Assembly: GCA_050015075.1 (NCBI GenBank)
Contig: JBEKCB010000017.1
Span: forward strand, 1 to 64,000
Origin: Candidatus Brocadiia bacterium
GTDB taxonomy: Bacteria; Planctomycetota; Brocadiia; CAIUPP01
DNA length: 64,000 nucleotides
Direction: 5' to 3'
Under the pieces are notes generated by a model. The model did no database searches, was not told the origin of the DNA, and saw only the letters and a program-made list of their open reading frames with translations. The position numbers were made by a program, and so were the translations under genes. Below are positions 12,875 through 26,921 of this stretch, piece by piece; position 1 is the first letter of the stretch, and each line of letters begins with the position of its first letter.

Positions 12875-15800
12875 GTGTCTTTGGAAGAAGCTGTTCGCAA
12901 AGTACGGAACCTCGATGGTCTTCTGGGACTGCTACGTGACGATTTGGGCTGGCCGCTGGAATCCCGTGCTGCTCCCGACGAAGTGACGTTCGACTGGTCC
13001 GCCAGCGAACTTCGGGTGAGCGAAGCCGCAGCCAGGAGACTGAAAGGCGGCGTTGTTCGCCAGGTACGTGATTTCACCACGAATCAGCCTTGGGGCATCT
13101 TCCTGGTCGAATTCACGAACGGCCAGGTATATCGAACCGCGCTGCGGCAAGTGCTTCGCGGGTTAGTTCCCAACCGGCTGCGCGCACCTCATCTGCCTGC
13201 ATGGGATCACGAAAATATCCTCTTTATCTGCACGACACATGAATTCGACCGCTTCACGTTCGGCCATTTTCGCGGCGAGAAATTCCCCAGAGCGAAGCTG
13301 GCGACTTTCAGTTGGGGCACTGGCGACCGTTACGTGCGCACGCTCTGCGAGTATAACCTGCCAGCGCTCAAGTACCCCGAAGACGGCGGCGCTAGCCCTA
13401 AGTCATGGCTCGAATCATGGGGCAAAGCGTTCGACAAGGAACCACTTACCCGCGAGTTCTTCAGGCGCTTTGACAGTGCCCTTGATGCCGTCAAAGCTGA
13501 CCTCGAGACCTACCAGCATCTCAGTTCAGCGGAAGCGTACAGCCACGCCCAACTGTTGCTGGAACGACTGCTGTTTCTATACTTCCTTCAGAATCGCGGA
13601 TGGCTCAATCAGCAGCGCAACTTTTTGTTGGCCAACTTCCATCCCTTCCGTGACCAGACGGAGCAATTCACCTATTACCAACAGTTCGTCGAGAAGCTTT
13701 TCTGGACCTTGGCTTCCGCGCCAGGCGCTGGCGCGCGGTTGAATGGCATACCGTTCCTGAATGGCGGCTTGTTCGACGACGATGAGTTTGCCCCCACAGT
13801 CGTCCGCCTCAAGCAAAACCCACCGTTGAAGATTCGGAACGCGGCGTTCGGGTTCGTGTTTGACGAGCTGCTGGAAAGGTTCAACTTCACTGTATGTGAA
13901 GATACGCCGCTTGACCAGGACGTTGCCGTGGACCCGGAAATGCTGGGCAAGGTTTTCGAGTCCATCGTCCTGCACGCTGAGGCCGCCGACCCGGACGCCG
14001 TCGCCCCCGATAAGAGGAAAGCGACCGGTTCCTACTACACGCCGCGCATCGTCGTTCATTTCATCTGCAAGGAAGTGCTGCGGCAATACTTGCTCCCCCG
14101 TCTGCACGGTGAGAAGTGGCCCGCGCGCCTGAGTGCGCTGCTGAATATGGACGCCAGCCTCGGCTTGGCCGAAGAAGATATCAGTGCCCTCCGAACGCTT
14201 GTGACACCGGGGGAAGGCATGAAGCTGAAGGAGCTTCTGTATGACATCAAATGCTGTGACCCGGCTGTGGGTTCCGGGGCATTTCCCGTCGGCCTTCTGC
14301 ATGAGTTGGTGAACCTTCTCCGCATCGTGGAGACGGCAGCCAATGGGTACGTGGACCCGGTGCGCAAGGAAGGGACGCAGTGGACGCATCTGGTGAAAGC
14401 CCGCATCGTGGAAAGGTCGCTTTACGGCGTGGACATTCAGCAACAAGCCATCGAGATTTGCCGTCTCAGGCTCTGGCTCAGCCTGGTCGTGGACTATGAC
14501 CCAGGTGTGGACCCATTCACGGCTGACCACGTTCAATTTCAAACGGCGATTGACCGTATCTCTCAACTGCCGAACCTGGACATGAACTTCCGCCGGGGGG
14601 ACAGCCTCCACGATCACATTTCCGGCATTCCGGTGCGTATTGAGCCGGGGATCGCCGGCAGTTTCCAGACGGGTTTTGAGGCAATCCGCAAACTCGGTGC
14701 TCAGCTCCATCATGCCGTGAAGTCGGAGCGCAAAAGGAATCTCCGGGTGGAAATCCTTCGGCGGCGCTTGGACATCGCCGATAGGATTCTCTCTAACGAA
14801 CTCGGAAAGCTTAAGGACCATGACGGCAAGCTGGCGGCCGTGTTGTTCGAGGAAACCGAATCTGACGCGGAGAAGCGGCGACAACTGGCGCAGGAGATGA
14901 TTCACGTCAAAGAGGCCCTCGCAAAAGTTCAGTCCGACCGGAGAAGCCTGGAAAAGCTGGCCACTCGCGTCTTCGACAGCGGTTTTTATCCCAAACTCCG
15001 ACAGCTCGAAGGAGCGGACTTCAACAGCCCATTCAACTTCTCATGGCACTTGGATTTTGCGGACGTCTTCGCTCCAAGACGCGCCGAGCCAATCGCGACA
15101 TTCGATGGCCGTTTCGCATTCGTCAATGAAGTTCGCCCGCAGAAGATGCTTTTGCAGCCCCGCACGGAAGCCGGCGGATTCGACATCGTCGTTGGTAATC
15201 CGCCTTTTGTGACCGCCCGTAATCCAGAGAAGCGCGAGCTTTGGCGAGAACGCTGGCCACGCGTCTGCCACGGAAAGTATCTCTTGGTCTGCCCGTTTTT
15301 CGACCTCAGTTTCGGCTTGCTCCGGCATGGGGGACAACTCGGGTTCATCGTGTCGAATGCCTTCGCCAAGCGCGAATTCGGCAAACCGCTCGTAGAGAAA
15401 TTCTTCCCGACCGTGGACCTCCAGAAAGTGATAGACTGCTCAGGGCTAATGTTCCCCGGACATGGTACGCCAACCTGTCTTGTGTTTGGGCGCAATCAGA
15501 TGCCCGACCCGGAATCGCCGGTACGCGTTGCCGCTATCCTGCCAGGAGGCGGCGATCTCCGTACACCGCCGGAAGAAAGTCCCCTCTGGCATACGTTGGC
15601 GGAGTTCCATGACCAGCCGGGATACGCGGACGCGAGCGTGGTAGTCGCGGATCGTCCACGAGATTCGATGGCAAAGTGGCCGTGGAGTCTAGAATCCAGT
15701 GCGGAATCTACACAGGACAGATTTGCGGAAGCATCAAGCTCACGCCTTCGCAAATCATTGGGTGAGGATATCGGGTTCATGTTCGTCATGGGACGGAATG

Positions 15801-17464
15801 AGATATTCACGCACTCGGCGGACGCAGCCCGACGGCAGTCGTTCAGCCTAGACTATCTACTTGCACTCACGCCAGGTGAAGAGGTGCGAAATTGGGAAAT
15901 ACGTGGTCATGAATACGGCCTCTTCCCTTATGACCGTTCCACAATAGACTTGGTCAAGTTCAAGGCCGCCGACCCAGAAAAGCGCTTCTTCAAACGGTTT
16001 GAGCGCGAGCTGTCAACCCGCCCCACTTTCTCAGGCACGTTTGCTCTCGATGGAAGAGCAATATACCAATATCACCAGATTCCGGTAGCACGCGCATTGT
16101 TGCCAAGGTCAATTGCCTTCTGCGAGATTGCGACCCATTGCCATTTTGTGTTTTCACCGACACAACAGCTTTTCCCACAAACCGCACCGGTGATTAAGTT
16201 ACCTGCCGCTGCTAGTGACGATGCTCATCATCTTCTTGTTGCTCTTCTGAACTCCAGCGCCGCACTCTTTTGGCTGAAACAGGTGTGTTTCAACAAAGCC
16301 GCACTCTTTTGGCTGAAACAGGTGTGTTTCAACAAAGGCGCGGGAGCAGACGAGGAACGAGATCGCTTCGTATATGCTGGAGGCAAGGTCGAGCAGTTAC
16401 CAGTGCCGGATGCGCTGGCAGGTTCTTTGAAGGGGAAGTCGAGTTCGGCTGCTGGCCGGCTTACCAGTCTTTCTGTGGCCTGCTGGAAACGAGGACAAAG
16501 GGTCCGCGCCCTATCCATGAAGAAAGTCTTGGAGAAAGAACGCGAAGCCTACTACGAGTGGAACTCGGGACTGCCAGGTTACGTCCCGCCAGACAAGGAG
16601 ATCGCCAACCCTTTTGAGACTGCAAAACAACTTCGGAAAACCCTGAGCCGCGCAATCGAAATCCGCGAAACCCTCCGCGCTGAGATGATCGCACGACAGG
16701 AGGAAATGGATTGGTTGGTGTACGAATGCTACGGATTGGACGCGGAGGTGGGGGAACCTCTGCCGGATTCCGAACTCTCCCTTGCGCGTGAGCAGCGCCC
16801 ATTCTCTGTGTGGGCGCAGGCGAACGGCGACCTCGATAAGGCAGTCGCCTCGATTCCGCCGGACTGGTCTTCCCAGCGGAAGGCGCTTTGGCGGAAACGT
16901 CTGGAACTTATCTGGGACAACGAGCACGTTCGCCGCATCGAGCAGCCGGTTTACAAGCGGAGGTGGGATGAGCAGTGGAAGATCGGCAATAGCTGGCAGT
17001 GCGGCCAGTCGGCTTACGACGCCGAGTTTCTTGACGCCTTCTCCTGGTGGCTTTCTGAAAAGGCGGAGTGGTGGCTGGAACACCGAAAGGCCGGCGGCCC
17101 CGTCTCAATCGAAGACTGGGCGGCCGCACTCTGGGATGATCGGCGCGTCAAGGCGGCGTGGCCGGTTGCAGCTGAGGCGGACCAGCGACTCGAAGCGTGG
17201 AAGCGAGCCGGAGAATCGCACGAGTCGAAGCGGCAAGAGTCCCTCTACGCGAACTACGCAGAGTTCGTCGGGTTCTTCAAGGCCCTGGTCAGAGAGCAAA
17301 GCGTCCCGGACGACATTCCGTTTGCCGTGCCCTGGGAAGAACTGGAAAAGCGCAAGATCAAAGTGCCCGGCAACGTGAAGCGTATCCGAGGCAAGCTGAA
17401 CGTGCCGCGCGAACGGTTCTGGACCACGACGGAGGGGACTTTTAGAGTGGCAAGGGTCTCGTAG
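12875..17464 (+). CDS. Large adenine methyltransferase, type IIG-like N-terminus with BREX-2/PglX-like C-terminal half
   Basis: GSYYTP, DPAVGSGAF and VGNPPF; SNAFAKREFGK...PGHGTPT, YKRRW and RGKLNVPRERF recall PglX. Confidence 0.85.
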   Translation: MSLEEAVRKVRNLDGLLGLLRDDLGWPLESRAAPDEVTFDWSASELRVSEAAARRLKGGVVRQVRDFTTNQPWGIFLVEFTNGQVYRTALRQVLRGLVPNRLRAPHLPAWDHENILFICTTHEFDRFTFGHFRGEKFPRAKLATFSWGTGDRYVRTLCEYNLPALKYPEDGGASPKSWLESWGKAFDKEPLTREFFRRFDSALDAVKADLETYQHLSSAEAYSHAQLLLERLLFLYFLQNRGWLNQQRNFLLANFHPFRDQTEQFTYYQQFVEKLFWTLASAPGAGARLNGIPFLNGGLFDDDEFAPTVVRLKQNPPLKIRNAAFGFVFDELLERFNFTVCEDTPLDQDVAVDPEMLGKVFESIVLHAEAADPDAVAPDKRKATGSYYTPRIVVHFICKEVLRQYLLPRLHGEKWPARLSALLNMDASLGLAEEDISALRTLVTPGEGMKLKELLYDIKCCDPAVGSGAFPVGLLHELVNLLRIVETAANGYVDPVRKEGTQWTHLVKARIVERSLYGVDIQQQAIEICRLRLWLSLVVDYDPGVDPFTADHVQFQTAIDRISQLPNLDMNFRRGDSLHDHISGIPVRIEPGIAGSFQTGFEAIRKLGAQLHHAVKSERKRNLRVEILRRRLDIADRILSNELGKLKDHDGKLAAVLFEETESDAEKRRQLAQEMIHVKEALAKVQSDRRSLEKLATRVFDSGFYPKLRQLEGADFNSPFNFSWHLDFADVFAPRRAEPIATFDGRFAFVNEVRPQKMLLQPRTEAGGFDIVVGNPPFVTARNPEKRELWRERWPRVCHGKYLLVCPFFDLSFGLLRHGGQLGFIVSNAFAKREFGKPLVEKFFPTVDLQKVIDCSGLMFPGHGTPTCLVFGRNQMPDPESPVRVAAILPGGGDLRTPPEESPLWHTLAEFHDQPGYADASVVVADRPRDSMAKWPWSLESSAESTQDRFAEASSSRLRKSLGEDIGFMFVMGRNEIFTHSADAARRQSFSLDYLLALTPGEEVRNWEIRGHEYGLFPYDRSTIDLVKFKAADPEKRFFKRFERELSTRPTFSGTFALDGRAIYQYHQIPVARALLPRSIAFCEIATHCHFVFSPTQQLFPQTAPVIKLPAAASDDAHHLLVALLNSSAALFWLKQVCFNKAALFWLKQVCFNKGAGADEERDRFVYAGGKVEQLPVPDALAGSLKGKSSSAAGRLTSLSVACWKRGQRVRALSMKKVLEKEREAYYEWNSGLPGYVPPDKEIANPFETAKQLRKTLSRAIEIRETLRAEMIARQEEMDWLVYECYGLDAEVGEPLPDSELSLAREQRPFSVWAQANGDLDKAVASIPPDWSSQRKALWRKRLELIWDNEHVRRIEQPVYKRRWDEQWKIGNSWQCGQSAYDAEFLDAFSWWLSEKAEWWLEHRKAGGPVSIEDWAAALWDDRRVKAAWPVAAEADQRLEAWKRAGESHESKRQESLYANYAEFVGFFKALVREQSVPDDIPFAVPWEELEKRKIKVPGNVKRIRGKLNVPRERFWTTTEGTFRVARVS
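16259..16336 (+). repeat. Perfect 39-bp tandem duplication (in frame, AALFWLKQVCFNK x2)
   Basis: GCCGCACTCTTTTGGCTGAAACAGGTGTGTTTCAACAAA occurs twice consecutively. Confidence 0.95.
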
Positions 17465-20880: not shown

Positions 20881-20935
20881 GTGCATTCAGTCGGTGCCGG
20901 AACCCCGACGCGAGAGGTTGCATGGAGAGAGCAAC

Positions 20936-22654
20936 ATGACCGATGCTGACAAGATCGAGGCGAGTCTGACTAATTTTCGCGCGGCACTGCCGGACCTTCT
21001 TAGCCATGCCTTGGTGCGGGACCGCTTTCGGGAAAAGGTCGTTGCCTTCTGCAAACCAGAAGCCGAGGCGGACCTCCGCAAATCTGTTCCCGTCAGAAAA
21101 TACACAGATGAAGAGGGGGAACATTTCGTCTGGGAAGGCGGGTGGGCACGCCGGACGCCGCTCGGACGGCTGATAGTGGAAGGCCCCAAAAGCCTCGACG
21201 CGGCTTATGTTCTTCTCGCCTTGATTCATGACAGCGGGTCGCACGTCGTCCCCGTGGGCCACGCAGCCCCGGATGATTGGTGGACCTATTCCTCGGTGGA
21301 CTCCGCGCTAACGCCGCTTGACCTGTTCATGGCCCGCGAGTGGACGAATACATTGAAGTGGAGCATGCACGAAGTGACGCCGGAAGCCGTTGACAAGCTG
21401 TCCGGTTGGTGGAAAACGGCTGAAGCCGAATGCGCGGCGCTTCAAGGGGAGCCAGCAAAATCTGCCCCTGTCCCTCCGACGCTCGAAGGCGCGCAAGAGA
21501 AGGGCGTGGCGCTGGCAGAACCGCCTCCTGCCTTTAATGGCGAGGTTGCGAACGCGATGCGCGACATGGAACCCGCCAAGAATGCATACAACGTGGCTGT
21601 GGCCGCTCGATTCCTGCTTGAGACCCGGTACGTTGACAGGGAGCGCCGCCTTATATGGCTCTGCAAGCGCGATGCTGCGGAGCTTGGCGTCGGCGAAGAC
21701 AAACTGGCCCGACTTGCAGCCAACGCGCCTGAGGAAGACGGGCGGAAGGGACTCACGGCGAACCGCTTTGCGGAGTTGGTGGGGCTTCAATTGCGGGGAC
21801 TGGGTGCTGAACTTCCGTTAGACTGGTTATTCATGGGGCGAAAGACTGACACACCGCACGCTTTTATGGAGTTTGTGGAGGCCTTGAAGCGCGCGCTTCG
21901 GGCTGTGATTGACGGATACGCGATGGCGAGGAAGCCGGACGCGCCAGCGATCCCGGCCACAGCGGAGCAACCGGACGCTCCTGCCGGCGGCCCTGTTCAC
22001 GCGGCGGCCCCGGGTGAGGCAGCGAAAACGACAATGGACCCTGTTGCCGATGCCTTCAAGGTGTCCGATGACATCATTCAGGCTCATGCGGCTAATGCGC
22101 TTCGCAGCATTGCCCCTAAAGCACAACTCGCCTCGATAGCTACCCTGCTGCCGAGGCTTCCTGGCACCCCGGCTTTAGCGAAAATACTGGAAGACGGCAA
22201 GAATCTGAACCCGAAAGCCGCGGATTTCTGCCAGGGGTATAGGGCTTGGCACAGAGACGCGAGAGGTGCTCTGGAACGCGCTTACCAGGCGGTCTGTGGC
22301 GACACACTGAACGCATTGGCGAAACAGACGCTCGAAGTATTCAACCGCTTTCTGGACCCGCCAGACCCGGAGGGAGCCATCAGGTACATCGAGAGCTTGC
22401 TCAGCGAAGGCGCAGGAGCAGCGAAGACTCCAGGCGGCGCGGCGCAGTCCGACAAGGCGAGCGTGCAGGGGGCGCAGCATGAGCCGCCGCCGGAGGGCGT
22501 CTGGCAAGCTTTGTTTGGTTGGGTGTGGCGCTTCCCGCCTTGGCTTAAGTGGCCGATCATCATACTTACAGCAATTGTGCTGGTACTGTTTGCCCTTTGT
22601 GTGGCACTACCGGATGCGACCAAGCAAAGACTTCTTGATTGGATTATGAAGTGA
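20936..22654 (+). CDS. Hypothetical protein with C-terminal transmembrane helix
   Basis: Long ORF with GGAG RBS; hydrophobic IIILTAIVLVLFALCVAL near the C-terminus. Confidence 0.7.
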   Translation: MTDADKIEASLTNFRAALPDLLSHALVRDRFREKVVAFCKPEAEADLRKSVPVRKYTDEEGEHFVWEGGWARRTPLGRLIVEGPKSLDAAYVLLALIHDSGSHVVPVGHAAPDDWWTYSSVDSALTPLDLFMAREWTNTLKWSMHEVTPEAVDKLSGWWKTAEAECAALQGEPAKSAPVPPTLEGAQEKGVALAEPPPAFNGEVANAMRDMEPAKNAYNVAVAARFLLETRYVDRERRLIWLCKRDAAELGVGEDKLARLAANAPEEDGRKGLTANRFAELVGLQLRGLGAELPLDWLFMGRKTDTPHAFMEFVEALKRALRAVIDGYAMARKPDAPAIPATAEQPDAPAGGPVHAAAPGEAAKTTMDPVADAFKVSDDIIQAHAANALRSIAPKAQLASIATLLPRLPGTPALAKILEDGKNLNPKAADFCQGYRAWHRDARGALERAYQAVCGDTLNALAKQTLEVFNRFLDPPDPEGAIRYIESLLSEGAGAAKTPGGAAQSDKASVQGAQHEPPPEGVWQALFGWVWRFPPWLKWPIIILTAIVLVLFALCVALPDATKQRLLDWIMK

Positions 22655-22771
22655 TATACGGCCCATTCCGCATGTCAGTAGCGCATGGTATAAGCCCATG
22701 GCACGGCGCGGCAACGGTTGGCCGCCGGGGGCGTGCTCGCACGGTCTCCTGTCCCCTTCTCTGAAGTGCTG

Positions 22772-22800
22772 TTGACGCAACTCAGCCGCAGGTATAGAGT
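22772..22800 (+). promoter_or_regulatory. Putative sigma70 promoter
   Basis: TTGACG-17 bp-TAGAGT upstream of two small genes. Confidence 0.5.
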
Positions 22801-22866
22801 CGGACGAGGATTCAGCGCGCGGATGGGCTTACGGCACAATCAGGTGAAAGGTACGGGAGAATAGGC

Positions 22867-23043
22867 GTGAAGAACGTGGACATGAAGGTCGAGGGCAACA
22901 TCCTGACGATCAAGGTGGACCTGACCAAGGAGTTCGGCCCATCGTCCTCCGGCAAGACAATCATTATCGCCTCCACCGAGGGGAACGTCAGCGTTGTCGA
23001 CCGTGAGGAGAAACTCGGACTGAACGTGTATCGGAAGAAGTGA
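22867..23043 (+). CDS. Small conserved hypothetical protein (58 aa, missing from ORF track)
   Basis: GGGAG RBS, GTG start; MKNVDMKVEGNILTIKVDLTKEFGPSSSGKTIIIASTEGNVSVVDREEKLGLNVYRKK. Confidence 0.85.
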   Translation: MKNVDMKVEGNILTIKVDLTKEFGPSSSGKTIIIASTEGNVSVVDREEKLGLNVYRKK

Positions 23044-23106
23044 GTCATGTGTCGTGGTTAGCCGTTGGCCGGACGCTGAGGACCGAAGATCAGGAAGGTC
23101 GCCATC

Positions 23107-23274
23107 GTGTTGAGATACATCGTTGGGGCTGTCATAGGAGGTGCGATTGGCGGCCTCATCGGGCACTTCACAAAGTGTGCAGGACTTGGCTGACCGCTCA
23201 TCGCCAGCCCCTGGTCAGGGGCTATTGCAGGCGCAGTGCTGGGAATCATAGTGGCCGGGGCCATTCCGAAATAG
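23107..23274 (+). CDS. DUF6132-like small membrane protein, candidate selenoprotein (UGA at 23191-23193)
   Basis: AGGAAGG RBS, GTG start; MLRYIVGAVIGGAIGGLIGHFTKCAGLG-U-PLIASPWSGAIAGAVLGIIVAGAIPK; two Gly-rich TM helices around C-x4-U-P. Confidence 0.75.
23206..23223 (+). promoter_or_regulatory. Putative bacterial SECIS hairpin
   Basis: Perfect stem AGCCCCT/AGGGGCT with a GGTC loop, starting after a 12-nt spacer from the UGA. Confidence 0.7.
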
Positions 23275-23320
23275 CGATCATTTCCCAGAGGGACTCTCGT
23301 TCCCTTGGCGAGCAAAAGCC

Positions 23321-24208
23321 ATGCCCCGTAGAGCCAAGACGAAAACGGCAAAGACGGACTTCTATCCGGAGGTCCAGTCGCTCCTGCATGGGGCATTCGG
23401 TGAGGACCTGATGGTGGGTCGAACGAACAGCAAAATGACGCGGGTCCAACCTGTGTTCGGGTGGTTGCAGGCCAACTGTACCCCGGGATGGCCGCAACTG
23501 TTGATCGGGTTGGCGCAGGGAATGGAGCACGTGCCTAGATGTGGCGCGGTCAGACGCGTAAAACTCGATCCTGAGGAGGCTATACCACCCACGCCTGCAC
23601 GTCTAGCCTGGATGCTTCACAACGCCGAACTCCTCGCACCGCATGACGGAAGGGAATGGCGGGAACTCAGGCAGCGCGTATCGGAGAACAAATCGGTATC
23701 GCGCGCACTCGCTCAACTGGACGTCGGACGGAGTGACCACCTGCCCCGCAAACTTGTTCTAGAAGGCAAGACCCACGCAGACTGCCTAATCGAATGTGAG
23801 GAGGCTTTGATCTGGATCGAGGGCAAGCGATTCGACTGGCTCTCCCCGTCGATCAAGTGGGATGTGACGCGCGACCAACTCGCGCGCAACCTCGAAGCCG
23901 TCTGGTCACTCGCCATCAACGCCAACAAGGACTACTGCCTGATCATCTGCCACGAACACCCCTTGAAGCACCACGAGAAACTCCTGGTGGAAGGCTACCG
24001 GTCCGGCACATGGACAGGCGGTTGGCCGCACATTCCCGAAAACCTCCGGCGTGAGTTTGGCAAGCGGATCGGCACCGCCACCTGGCAGGCCATCACCGAC
24101 GCTTGGCCGTCGCTTCGCGAGTTGTCGGCACTGGGTGACCTCGAATCAGCTTACTGCTCGACAGAGAGAATGACTGAACAGAGGCATCGGGACAGAAGGA
24201 GCTGTTGA
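23321..24208 (+). CDS. Putative restriction-endonuclease-fold protein (PD-(D/E)xK)
   Basis: LEGKTHADCLIE...IWIEGK...RDQLARN and terminal IGTATW pattern. Confidence 0.6.
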   Translation: MPRRAKTKTAKTDFYPEVQSLLHGAFGEDLMVGRTNSKMTRVQPVFGWLQANCTPGWPQLLIGLAQGMEHVPRCGAVRRVKLDPEEAIPPTPARLAWMLHNAELLAPHDGREWRELRQRVSENKSVSRALAQLDVGRSDHLPRKLVLEGKTHADCLIECEEALIWIEGKRFDWLSPSIKWDVTRDQLARNLEAVWSLAINANKDYCLIICHEHPLKHHEKLLVEGYRSGTWTGGWPHIPENLRREFGKRIGTATWQAITDAWPSLRELSALGDLESAYCSTERMTEQRHRDRRSC

Positions 24209-24897
24209 TGAAGGCACTGATCATCAACGTGGCTGCCAATTCGGCCATGCCTCAAATCGGCGGACCTGGTCCGGTATTTGATGATCGGACGTTTCGTTAC
24301 AAACCGATCCCCGAAGGTGACGACGTCAGTCGCGGCCCGACGTATCGTTCTCTTGGGTTGACTGACTATGTGCCGGACCCTAACATGACGGCCCATTATG
24401 ACCCGGAGTTCGGCGGACCGACCTATGGGGACTACCTCGGCAACAAGCCCAACCTCAGGAGAATCGGAACCGGCGACCTGCTGCTGTTCTTGGCGTCTCT
24501 TGATCATGTTCGCACCGGCGTTCGTAGGTTCTACTTCATCGGGTGGATATTGGTTGCAGCAGTACTCTCAGAAAATGATGCACGTAAAGATGCACGGTGC
24601 CAGCGGAATGCGCACATTCTGCGCCGGGACGATTACGGATTCTCCGTCTTCTTGGGCAAGGAAGGCCAATTGCTTCCGAAGGCCGTGGCGATCACGCGCA
24701 GCCTCGCAGCCGAAGCTTTTCTCCCGGACGGAAAGATGTGGACAATCCGCAACCCGCGCACAGGGCATGTCTTTCAGGACAATGAGCGCATCAACCACCT
24801 AACACGGTTTCCACGATTGGTATGCGATGAACGCAAGGTGGAGATCCTTCGCAACGAACTCATGAGACACGGCAATGCGTCGTCCAGTTGCCTTTGA
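24208..24897 (+). CDS. Nmad3-like (nucleotide modification-associated) protein
   Basis: GPVFDD-x-x-F-x-Y-x-PIPE, HYDPEF...TYGD, GDLLLF, YFIGW and NAH motifs; start overlaps the upstream stop. Confidence 0.75.
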   Translation: MKALIINVAANSAMPQIGGPGPVFDDRTFRYKPIPEGDDVSRGPTYRSLGLTDYVPDPNMTAHYDPEFGGPTYGDYLGNKPNLRRIGTGDLLLFLASLDHVRTGVRRFYFIGWILVAAVLSENDARKDARCQRNAHILRRDDYGFSVFLGKEGQLLPKAVAITRSLAAEAFLPDGKMWTIRNPRTGHVFQDNERINHLTRFPRLVCDERKVEILRNELMRHGNASSSCL

Positions 24898-24954
24898 CCT
24901 GTCGCATGGAGGGATGCGGATTCCTTATCGGGTCTGAAGGGTGAAGGGAAAAGC

Positions 24955-25698
24955 ATGAAATGCACGACAAAAGGCAAGGGTAGTCTATTGGCGCGACTCT
25001 TCGGGAAGCAAGCCACCGATGGGGAAGACTGTCCGCCCCCCGAAATCGGTAATATTGACCCAGATGCATACTCCAAAGCCTGTTTTCGGACGGGCGACTC
25101 CGGCCAGATTTTAACATATTGCAGTACCATGAGCAGTCCCCTGCCTGTGAGGGATATTACGAAAGACCATGCAGAAGAGTCGCACTGGAAGGAACCTGAG
25201 TGGGAGAGGCATCCTCCATCGTACATGCAGGAGTGCTGCTGCGAGGTCCGAGTCACGGAGCGAATGCAGAGGGAGAAACCGCGATTCGCCTTTTGGGTGA
25301 CGAACTTCGAACCGACAAGGCACATTCTCGTGGGCTATTATGTCGTTGATGGCAATAGCTTCCGGGATGTCCGCGACAAGTTCCCGCTGCAATGCGGCCG
25401 CCGCGGCAAAACATGCACAGATAGACGCCACTGCTGGTCGTATGCTGCCGCCACGGACACTAACGGCAGATACATGGCACACTTCGTCCGTGCAGACAAA
25501 GCAATCGCAGTCAACAAGAACTGGCTCAGTGAAATGCTCGCCTACGAATGCGTGCAGGTCAATAATCGTCAACTTAAATGGCTTCGAGTACCACCGAGGG
25601 CGTGCGCGGACATTGTTGCGGAGCTTAATAACTCGCCGAATGCGCTTCCTGAGTACCTTGCTGAGGAGCAACGTCTGCTTCACTTATTGGCCGGATAG
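24955..25698 (+). CDS. Hypothetical protein, possibly a distant Nmad2-like protein
   Basis: PVRDIT...KEPEWE...CC...R...FWVT...LVGYY pattern; Cys-rich. Confidence 0.5.
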   Translation: MKCTTKGKGSLLARLFGKQATDGEDCPPPEIGNIDPDAYSKACFRTGDSGQILTYCSTMSSPLPVRDITKDHAEESHWKEPEWERHPPSYMQECCCEVRVTERMQREKPRFAFWVTNFEPTRHILVGYYVVDGNSFRDVRDKFPLQCGRRGKTCTDRRHCWSYAAATDTNGRYMAHFVRADKAIAVNKNWLSEMLAYECVQVNNRQLKWLRVPPRACADIVAELNNSPNALPEYLAEEQRLLHLLAG

Positions 25699-25813
25699 GA
25701 CAATAACGGGCGAATGCTGAACGACCGTTATGTTACCTGCGTGCTGGTAAAGTGACAAATCCGAATTGCGCCGTAGTGCTCTTTTTCGACAGCACCAGCT
25801 TCAGGGAGTCTCA

Positions 25814-26842
25814 TTAGTCCGTTAATGGACTCCTGGCTACACGAGTCATCTCCATGATTGCTCTCGCAGCAAATTGCTCCTCGGACGCAATCATGGGCAC
25901 ATCGTGGCCCCCGAAGTTAACGAGCCGCGCCGCGCTGTTTCCTCGCCGAACCATAAGCCGGCCTAAATCCTTCCAGCCATCATATTGGAGGCGTCCGCAA
26001 ATCGCGCGTCGGAAGACATTCGTAACAACGTCTGCCAGTTGAAGGCCAGGACATGTAGCAGAATCGCCCAACCTAAAAGAGTCTTGCAGAATCTTACCAA
26101 TGTCGATGATGTCAATGGGTTTGTCTTCATTCACCGTTTGCCGAGGGGGCAGATGCTCGGGCCATTTGTCTATCCGCCTGCAGAATCTATCAAAATGGGT
26201 ATAGTCGCCTGCACCAACGCGGATTCGATCACTGACGGCGATCGAGAACTGCCGGGCCTGAATGAAAGGAGCGGCGAGCGTGTGGAAGAGATCCTCGTAG
26301 ACAGTCAGCGATGTGCCTTTTCGGTCAACAACCCAGTGGAATTCGCCGATTTCGGGTGGATCAAACAGCGCGTAATGAACAATTGCATCTTGGAGTTGCA
26401 TATCCACGACCTCAATCATGACAAGCATCTGAACGAAAAGCTGGTCTGGTAACGACCTCATTTTATTCTGAAGGGTGCGGACCCACTCTATGACTTCAGG
26501 GGTGTGTTTGCTCGTGATATGTGCCATGAGTCGGTCTGCCTGTTCACGTTTTCGTTCGGCAATAACGTTTGGCGTGTTATAGGCCATGTCAGTGACAGCG
26601 ACATGAAGCCGAGCTTTGCCAGCATAGAGTACGTCTACGATACTGGCGACCTCTGTTTCTTTCAACTTATTGCCTTTGACTTCTTGAGTGGTGTAGCCCC
26701 AAAGGCATTTGAGTTTATCGAACTCCTCGATAATCTGCCCGTGGGACCGGCCCGGAATCGTCAGTGCCCCTGCACAGCCATAGGAATGGCCGCCGCCGAT
26801 AGGATGTGCAAAAGCTCCTGATTCGTCGACATATATGAACAT
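25814..26842 (-). CDS. DUF3800 domain protein (RNase H-like)
   Basis: N-terminal FIYVDESG, EVKG, and GLQLADVV. Confidence 0.85.
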   Translation of the reverse strand: MFIYVDESGAFAHPIGGGHSYGCAGALTIPGRSHGQIIEEFDKLKCLWGYTTQEVKGNKLKETEVASIVDVLYAGKARLHVAVTDMAYNTPNVIAERKREQADRLMAHITSKHTPEVIEWVRTLQNKMRSLPDQLFVQMLVMIEVVDMQLQDAIVHYALFDPPEIGEFHWVVDRKGTSLTVYEDLFHTLAAPFIQARQFSIAVSDRIRVGAGDYTHFDRFCRRIDKWPEHLPPRQTVNEDKPIDIIDIGKILQDSFRLGDSATCPGLQLADVVTNVFRRAICGRLQYDGWKDLGRLMVRRGNSAARLVNFGGHDVPMIASEEQFAARAIMEMTRVARSPLTD

Positions 26843-26921
26843 GCGGAGCGCTCTTGATAAAAAGGGGCCGCCTCCTGCAAGCGGGTGGACACTAGGCACC
26901 GACACATTGCTGTCCTGTAGC

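Follow-up and report, generated by a model that had tools for sequence, protein, structure and literature searches.

Our analysis of a 64,000-nt window (positions 1-64,000 of contig JBEKCB010000017.1 from a Candidatus Brocadiia bacterium) indicated that positions 23107-23274 most likely encode a 55-residue DUF6132 selenoprotein, probably acting as a membrane redox relay, whose Sec subfamily appears to have spread among Sec-decoding bacteria. Judging from the gene anatomy and from comparison with homologues, translation would start at GTG 23107, and a hairpin located 12 nt after the UGA at 23191 would recruit SelB with Sec-tRNA(Sec), so that Sec would be inserted in place of the second Cys of the family and translation would continue to the TAG at 23272. 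The predicted product has two Gly-rich hydrophobic helices, and the 13 residues between them form a loop with the motif Cys24-x4-Sec29-Pro. With less certainty, this loop may cycle between a selenenylsulfide and a thiol/selenol pair as a membrane-anchored redox relay. Its presumed partner, a thioredoxin-fold protein, would act in trans here, and many Cys homologues carry it as a fused domain in cis. The Sec subfamily would have passed between Sec-decoding bacteria belonging to several phyla, and the copy in the window would be one of two intact copies in its Planctomycetota host, carried as an island passenger.

The gene lies on the plus strand and comprises 55 codons followed by TAG, and the parts listed in the original prediction (ribosome-binding site, GTG, TGA, 12-nt spacer, perfect hairpin, TAG, and the translation itself) were all confirmed at their positions. 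A Shine-Dalgarno-like AGGAAGG (23092-23098) precedes, by 8 nt, the GTG codon (23107-23109), which is taken as the start because a paralogue on contig C10 of the host genome has an aligned ATG, with AGGAG upstream at the position equivalent to AGGAAGG. The first Gly-rich hydrophobic helix (residues 2-21; 23110-23169) is followed by the TGT codon of Cys24 (23176-23178), the first residue of the C-x4-U motif, which is retained as Cys in 15 of the 16 Sec forms, and by the in-frame TGA at codon 29 (23191-23193), predicted to be read as Sec. The SECIS-like hairpin (23206-23223) overlaps the start of the second Gly-rich hydrophobic helix (residues 35-52; 23209-23262), and the frame closes at the TAG stop (23272-23274). 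Both helices were apparent in the sequence and in an AlphaFold model of low confidence (mean pLDDT, 61.5), in which helices at residues 2-21 and 35-52 flank a loop at residues 22-34. The TGA at 23191 is also spanned, with no differing letters, by contigs from three additional peat-metagenome runs (X6, X8, and X11), indicating that it is no assembly error. The in-frame UGA is the reason that the gene is overlooked by gene callers, as had been anticipated, and a word-indexed search of 5.8 billion predicted proteins with a Cys-substituted query returned no match to the full-length form.

With Cys placed at the UGA, the window protein matched Pfam family PF19628 (DUF6132) at 35.8 bits against a gathering cut-off of 23.2, and a six-frame reading with the stop counted scored 32.6 bits. 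The loop motif of the window protein, K-C-AGLG-U-P-LIAS-P, lies between two Gly-rich helices, as does the C-x4-C-P-x4-P loop of the DUF6132 Cys forms, for which the library representatives gave the consensus GKCSSGxCPLTANPxRG. A profile built from nine Sec forms retrieved 563 library representatives at E <= 0.001; a pattern search among the best 150 of these found C-x4-C in 113, with Pro following directly in 101 of the 113. This consensus places the UGA on the second Cys, in agreement with the assignment made in the original prediction. The two forms differ at this column, where Cys forms keep the second Cys and Sec forms have UGA, and also in its surroundings: the Pro that is near-invariant after the second Cys in Cys forms is often replaced by Gly, Ala, or Asn after Sec, and Sec forms carry S/N/D-P-W-S/I/L-G where Cys forms carry N-P-Y/W-R-G, a signature explained by the fact that these codons build the hairpin. 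Thioredoxin-fused members of the family share the same N-terminal module, whereas the window protein is stand-alone with no adjoining thioredoxin gene. Glycine zipper 2TM proteins (PF05433 and relatives) likewise have GxxxG-type Gly-rich helices, but the window protein scored under their cut-offs (19.6 bits against 24.2 for PF05433, residues 5-21), and no NCBIfam model fitted the DUF6132 module in a scan of three Sec forms (E <= 0.01 to 1).

A total of 16 distinct UGA-form genes were found in 14 genomes labeled as Planctomycetota, Verrucomicrobiota, Victivallales, Chloroflexia, and Thermodesulfobacteriota, and in all of them the UGA occupies the second-Cys column. In a phylum sample of 401 genomes, 17 had a DUF6132 match; exactly one TGA was present at nine of 21 places, each time (9/9) at this same column. 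A scan of species-representative genomes yielded 11 loci, nine of them with TGA, a share that is biased and gives no frequency because the search pattern, taken from a four-sequence alignment (…ASPWSGA), is the SECIS-coded motif itself. Seven of the nine TGA loci were new (Verrucomicrobiota, two from Victivallales, Chloroflexia, Thermodesulfobacteriota, and two unclassified bacteria). Across 45 pairs of ten Sec forms, pN/pS was 0.25 before the UGA and 0.36 after it, and P35, G38, G42, and G46, all downstream, are invariant, which indicates purifying selection on both parts of the frame.

These patterns bear on whether the TGA could be a plain stop, which would leave either a nonsense-mutated DUF6132 pseudogene or a 28-residue one-helix peptide, with a hairpin that is a mere by-product of the S-P-W-S-G-A codons. 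Such a stop could arise from TGT or TGC by a single-base change, the stem does overlap conserved residues, a third copy of the gene has decayed, and the RNA contigs of metatranscriptome X24 cover none of the gene. Nevertheless, this scenario appears very improbable, given that the TGA recurs at one column under five phylum-level labels with an open and conserved frame beyond it, that no start codon occurs between the TGA and codon 44 of the window gene, and that, as described below, compensatory changes in the stem, synonymous sites frozen in the stem only and in TGA forms only, and an association of TGA forms with selA all speak against it.

The hairpin is composed of a 7-bp stem (AGCCCCT, 23206-23212; AGGGGCT, 23217-23223) and a GGTC loop (23213-23216), all on the plus strand, with the loop beginning 19 nt 3′ of the UGA; the S-P-W-S-G-A codons make up its sequence. 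Among the 117,142 TGA triplets of the host genome (both strands, any frame), only 90 (0.08%) have a perfect hairpin with a 7-bp stem and a 4-nt loop starting 10-14 nt downstream; the loop is GGTC in just three of the 90, and two of these three are the two DUF6132 copies. The 66-nt region at 23185-23250 folds no better than shuffled sequences (z = 0.14), which indicates that the local hairpin is special while the surrounding region is not. An in-register hairpin with at least six of seven pairs was present in 14 of the 16 Sec forms, whereas none of the 19 Cys forms exceeded five pairs (Mann-Whitney, p = 1.5e-5, with relatives that are not independent). In the remaining two Sec forms the hairpin is displaced: in L043 it lies one nt out of register and has a GUU loop, and in L050, which also lacks the first Cys, it begins 19 nt downstream of the UGA and has a GUG loop.

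Comparison of the Sec forms pointed to selection on the pairing itself. In alignment A4, 87.5% of cells were paired, compared with 36-60% when the partner was slid, and three stem pairs had changed on both sides (GC to AU in four sequences, CG to UA in five, and UA to GC in one); two measures against shuffles of A4 were unexceptional, with pairs changed on both sides scoring as high in 98 of 500 shuffles and further pair types in 446 of 500. The pairing couples codons 5 and 10 after the UGA, such that Ser(AGC)...Ala(GCU) becomes Asn(AAU)...Ile(AUU) or Asp(GAU)...Met(AUG). At synonymous sites within the stem, the third base of the Pro codon is C in 13 of 14 Sec forms and that of the Gly codon is G in 12 of 14, with entropies of 0.37 and 0.73 bits, respectively, against 1.84 bits in other Gly codons and 1.43-1.82 bits at the same sites in Cys forms; pS was 0.33 in the hairpin codons and 0.69-0.78 elsewhere. 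Part of the stem conservation is at the protein level, since the stem also encodes the conserved S-P-W-S-G-A.

The fdhF SECIS of E. coli has a GGUC apical loop with an essential G-U, and a bulged U in its stem is important. The window hairpin also has a small apical loop beginning GG-U, whereas its perfect 7-bp stem has no bulged U and is shorter than the full fdhF element; the binding of SelB is predicted here. Like the canonical SelB-bound element of the fdhF type, the window hairpin is a stem-loop inside the open reading frame just 3′ of the UGA; its loop spacing falls within the 16-37 nt given for bacterial SECIS (PMC10778597), and covariation was observed in a family in which 14 of 16 hairpins share one register and two are displaced. 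These findings support the view, put forward in the original prediction, that the hairpin behaves like a bacterial SECIS. No Rfam model reached its gathering score over the gene, where only sub-threshold chance matches occurred, and only two tRNAs were detected in the window. A role of the hairpin as a terminator was rejected, given the absence of a T-tail and of any call in a terminator scan.

The host genome (4.64 Mb, 93.6% complete) encodes the machinery that such an element would need: contig C13 carries selA (533 bits), selB (340 bits; 15256-17124), selD (365 bits), and a tRNA-Sec whose anticodon is tca. More generally, of the 14 genomes carrying a UGA form, 13 had selA above its cut-off, as against three of 16 Cys-only genomes (Fisher, p = 5e-5, with relatives that are not independent), in a comparison that omits G057 and from which G066 was dropped, its DUF6132 match being partial and below the cut-off. 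The one UGA-form genome in which no selA was seen, G445, is 2.0 Mb in size and possibly incomplete. In the phylum sample, where selA occurs in 285 of 401 genomes, its presence in seven of seven UGA-form carriers is not significant alone (p = 0.09). In a search of the host for the FdhA family, no known selenoprotein gene with TGA was found, the FdhA-like match having no in-frame stop. The original prediction had depended on a host with Sec machinery, on homologues with UGA at this site, and on a conserved sequence after the UGA, all of which were found, and its overall interpretation is largely supported by these sequence comparisons.

The UGA might instead be read through without Sec, by a near-cognate Trp or Cys tRNA or by local reassignment, with a hairpin that merely slows the ribosome. 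Trp at the Sec column in seven of the best 150 library representatives (P0003, P0007, P0012, P0019, P0026, P0033, and P0052) would fit this possibility, but these proteins share the SPW-type signature and are more simply, and probably, cases in which gene callers rendered TGA as Trp. Moreover, the host ends ordinary genes with TGA, such as the 58-aa open reading frame upstream; its selA, selB, and selD have no internal stops; the column is Cys in homologues, forming a classic Cys/Sec pair; and the hairpin has a G-containing loop and the spacing of a SECIS (PMC10778597). Read-through of this kind is therefore regarded as extremely unlikely.

In a tree of 35 domain sequences, Sec forms clustered (4 changes, compared with about 12 in shuffles), although the tree is built on 45 columns with most forks open and the SECIS-coded residues inflate this clustering. 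A Planctomycetota Sec form was placed beside a Victivallales form at 91/91 in this weakly resolved tree. The Sec forms may have a single origin, and the nearness of Sec forms from different phyla is consistent with transfer among Sec-decoding hosts. The closest sampled relatives of the host (G001 and G002) had no DUF6132 match. In family f25, the Cys forms of two genomes (L039 in G111; L042 in G077) are flanked by an AcrB-type transporter on one side and a 3-hydroxyacyl-CoA dehydrogenase on the other, and the same slot in G136 holds the UGA form L050, in which the first Cys is replaced by Arg.

The Cys/Sec pair at the C-x4-C loop and the thioredoxin fusions make a membrane-anchored thiol/selenol redox relay the likeliest function that we can infer for the DUF6132 C-x4-C/U loop. 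Among the best 150 of the 563 library representatives, a thioredoxin domain was found in 48 of the 66 that are at least 100 aa in length, and some carry AhpC/Redoxin; roughly one representative in three is thus a thioredoxin fusion. Ten of the 19 genome-derived Cys forms are also thioredoxin fusions, and the Sec form L043 of G067 is fused to thioredoxin and sits after thioredoxin and flavodoxin genes. In G003, a member of the host's own family and the closest relative having DUF6132, a Cys-form gene is followed by a gene for a CoA-disulfide-reductase-like flavoprotein (L032, G003:C285, 1498-3154), and another Cys-form gene adjoins rubrerythrin. The paralogue on C10 reads U-P-C where the window protein reads U-P-L, giving it an extra Cys and a U-x-C motif.

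A Sec-decoded protein of this type could alternatively use its C-x4-U loop to bind a soft metal or metalloid (Hg, Cu, As, or Se) or to pass it across or along the membrane, in the manner of small Cys-bearing transport proteins of the Mer type, with no thiol-disulfide relay. The small size, two membrane helices, and Cys/Sec pair of the protein would suit such a role, and a 2026 inventory (PMC13188914, Table 1) lists several metal-related membrane selenoproteins, including a putative mercuric transport protein, a Cu/Zn efflux transporter, and a cation ATPase. In three genomes of family f25 the gene adjoins the AcrB-type transporter, and the G003 flavoprotein falls in the flavoprotein disulfide reductase class, which includes MerA. 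However, this flavoprotein matches MerA weakly (138 bits) and CoA-disulfide reductase best (434 bits, under the equivalog cut-off of 578.8). None of the 16 Sec forms that were inspected has a mer, ars, or cop gene next to it, and the main fused domain is thioredoxin, with no metal-binding domain. The original prediction had left the choice between a redox and a metal-binding protein open, and the thioredoxin fusions would favor the former; metal binding by the Cys/Sec loop is, in our judgment, the weaker alternative and unlikely.

The gene very probably encodes a genuine selenoprotein that belongs to a widespread family absent from published selenoprotein lists, while being of a well-known kind, namely a SECIS-dependent selenoprotein with Cys homologues. 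Table 1 of PMC13188914, which covers 119 prokaryotic selenoprotein families and subfamilies, contains no PF19628, no C-x4-U motif in any row, and no such membrane protein. The terms of the family are absent from the BSepDB supplement, the accessible part of the deep-Sep paper (PMC12013277) does not name DUF6132, and a literature search for DUF6132 found the name in a single, unrelated paper, an earlier unindexed listing being possible. The putative mercuric transport protein PF02411, the SO_0444 Cu/Zn efflux transporter, and the small dual-CXXC protein NF041197 of the same inventory (PMC13188914) are likewise small, membrane-bound, or both, carry a Cys/Sec motif, and were found by the same Cys/UGA-pair logic, but the NCBIfam scan of three Sec forms revealed no sequence relation to them. 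If our reading is correct, a membrane micro-protein family would be added to the prokaryotic selenoproteome, whose genes standard gene callers end at the UGA or, in some library entries, show with Trp there. DUF6132 would also gain a testable function, in that the Cys/Sec pair would mark the catalytic residue and the thioredoxin fusions would name the likely partner. The clean SECIS, with its 7-bp stem, GGUC loop, and fixed 12-nt spacing, would be a compact example of RNA/protein co-constraint and might lend itself to reporter assays in non-model phyla, Planctomycetota among them.

The host carries a second intact copy, the C10 paralogue (L021, 1477-1650, minus strand), which keeps the TGA and an identical hairpin and is three codons longer because the window TAG is CAG there. 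The likeness between the two loci extends beyond the gene: a repeat of 83% identity (23103-23368, plus strand; G000:C10:69741-70005, L021/L066) takes in the gene, the spacer, and some 20 codons at the start of the next gene (MPRRAKTK...). In the window, this next gene is a 295-aa open reading frame (23321-24208, plus strand) that matched no family and of which only the first 22 residues match the gene 3′ of the paralogue. The gene after the paralogue encodes a DUF2161 PD-(D/E)XK protein unrelated to the 295-aa product. The third copy (L067, G000:C26:16964-17040) is decayed, consisting only of the part from the TGA onward with a spoiled hairpin. The repeated gene together with the start of its neighbor looks like a recombination joint. 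On a broader view, which we offer tentatively and with slightly more doubt than belief, Sec-DUF6132 would be an unlisted, horizontally spreading family of two-helix proteins of ~55 residues, among the smallest known membrane selenoproteins and a membrane-embedded selenol/thiol partner of thioredoxin, with a SECIS set so tightly into the S-P-W-S-G-A codons that RNA pairing dictates correlated residue changes; the module and the 20 codons that open the following gene, present in three copies in the genome, may mark the joint where different nuclease-like genes and the defense island were swapped in.

The gene is situated within a defense/mobile island (5044-33560) in which G+C falls to 0.52-0.56 over 24-32 kb. 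Upstream of the gene, the island encodes a Type IIG restriction-modification protein, an HKD+Snf2 helicase, a 1547-aa PglX-like methylase with DUF7008, and a Ser/Thr kinase-TPR-FHA protein (best PADLOC hits, mad6/PD-T4-6); downstream are Nmad3, DUF3800, a 1035-aa HEAT protein, and a NACHT-like ATPase, with a ParB-methylase, a small terminase, and PrimPol farther along. The location in a defense island that had been proposed for the gene thus holds, whereas nothing links the family to defense, as Sec forms elsewhere lie in ordinary chromosomal surroundings with varied neighbors (ExbB/D, LpxB, cobalamin adenosyltransferase, AcrB, and thioredoxin). A PADLOC scan of the flanking open reading frames at 20894-26905, on both sides of the gene, gave no match, and no conserved linkage to defense genes placed the gene in a known anti-phage system. 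Since the flanking frames lack a defense match and the neighbors of Sec forms elsewhere are unrelated, we regard the window gene as an accessory gene carried along with the island and not as a defense component. The 58-aa open reading frame upstream of the gene (22867-23043), on the same strand, had no Pfam, NCBIfam, or PADLOC match. Contigs of metatranscriptome X24, which stop short of 23107-23274, cover 22844-23061 at 90-95% identity, and a relative of this 58-aa frame is accordingly present in RNA data.
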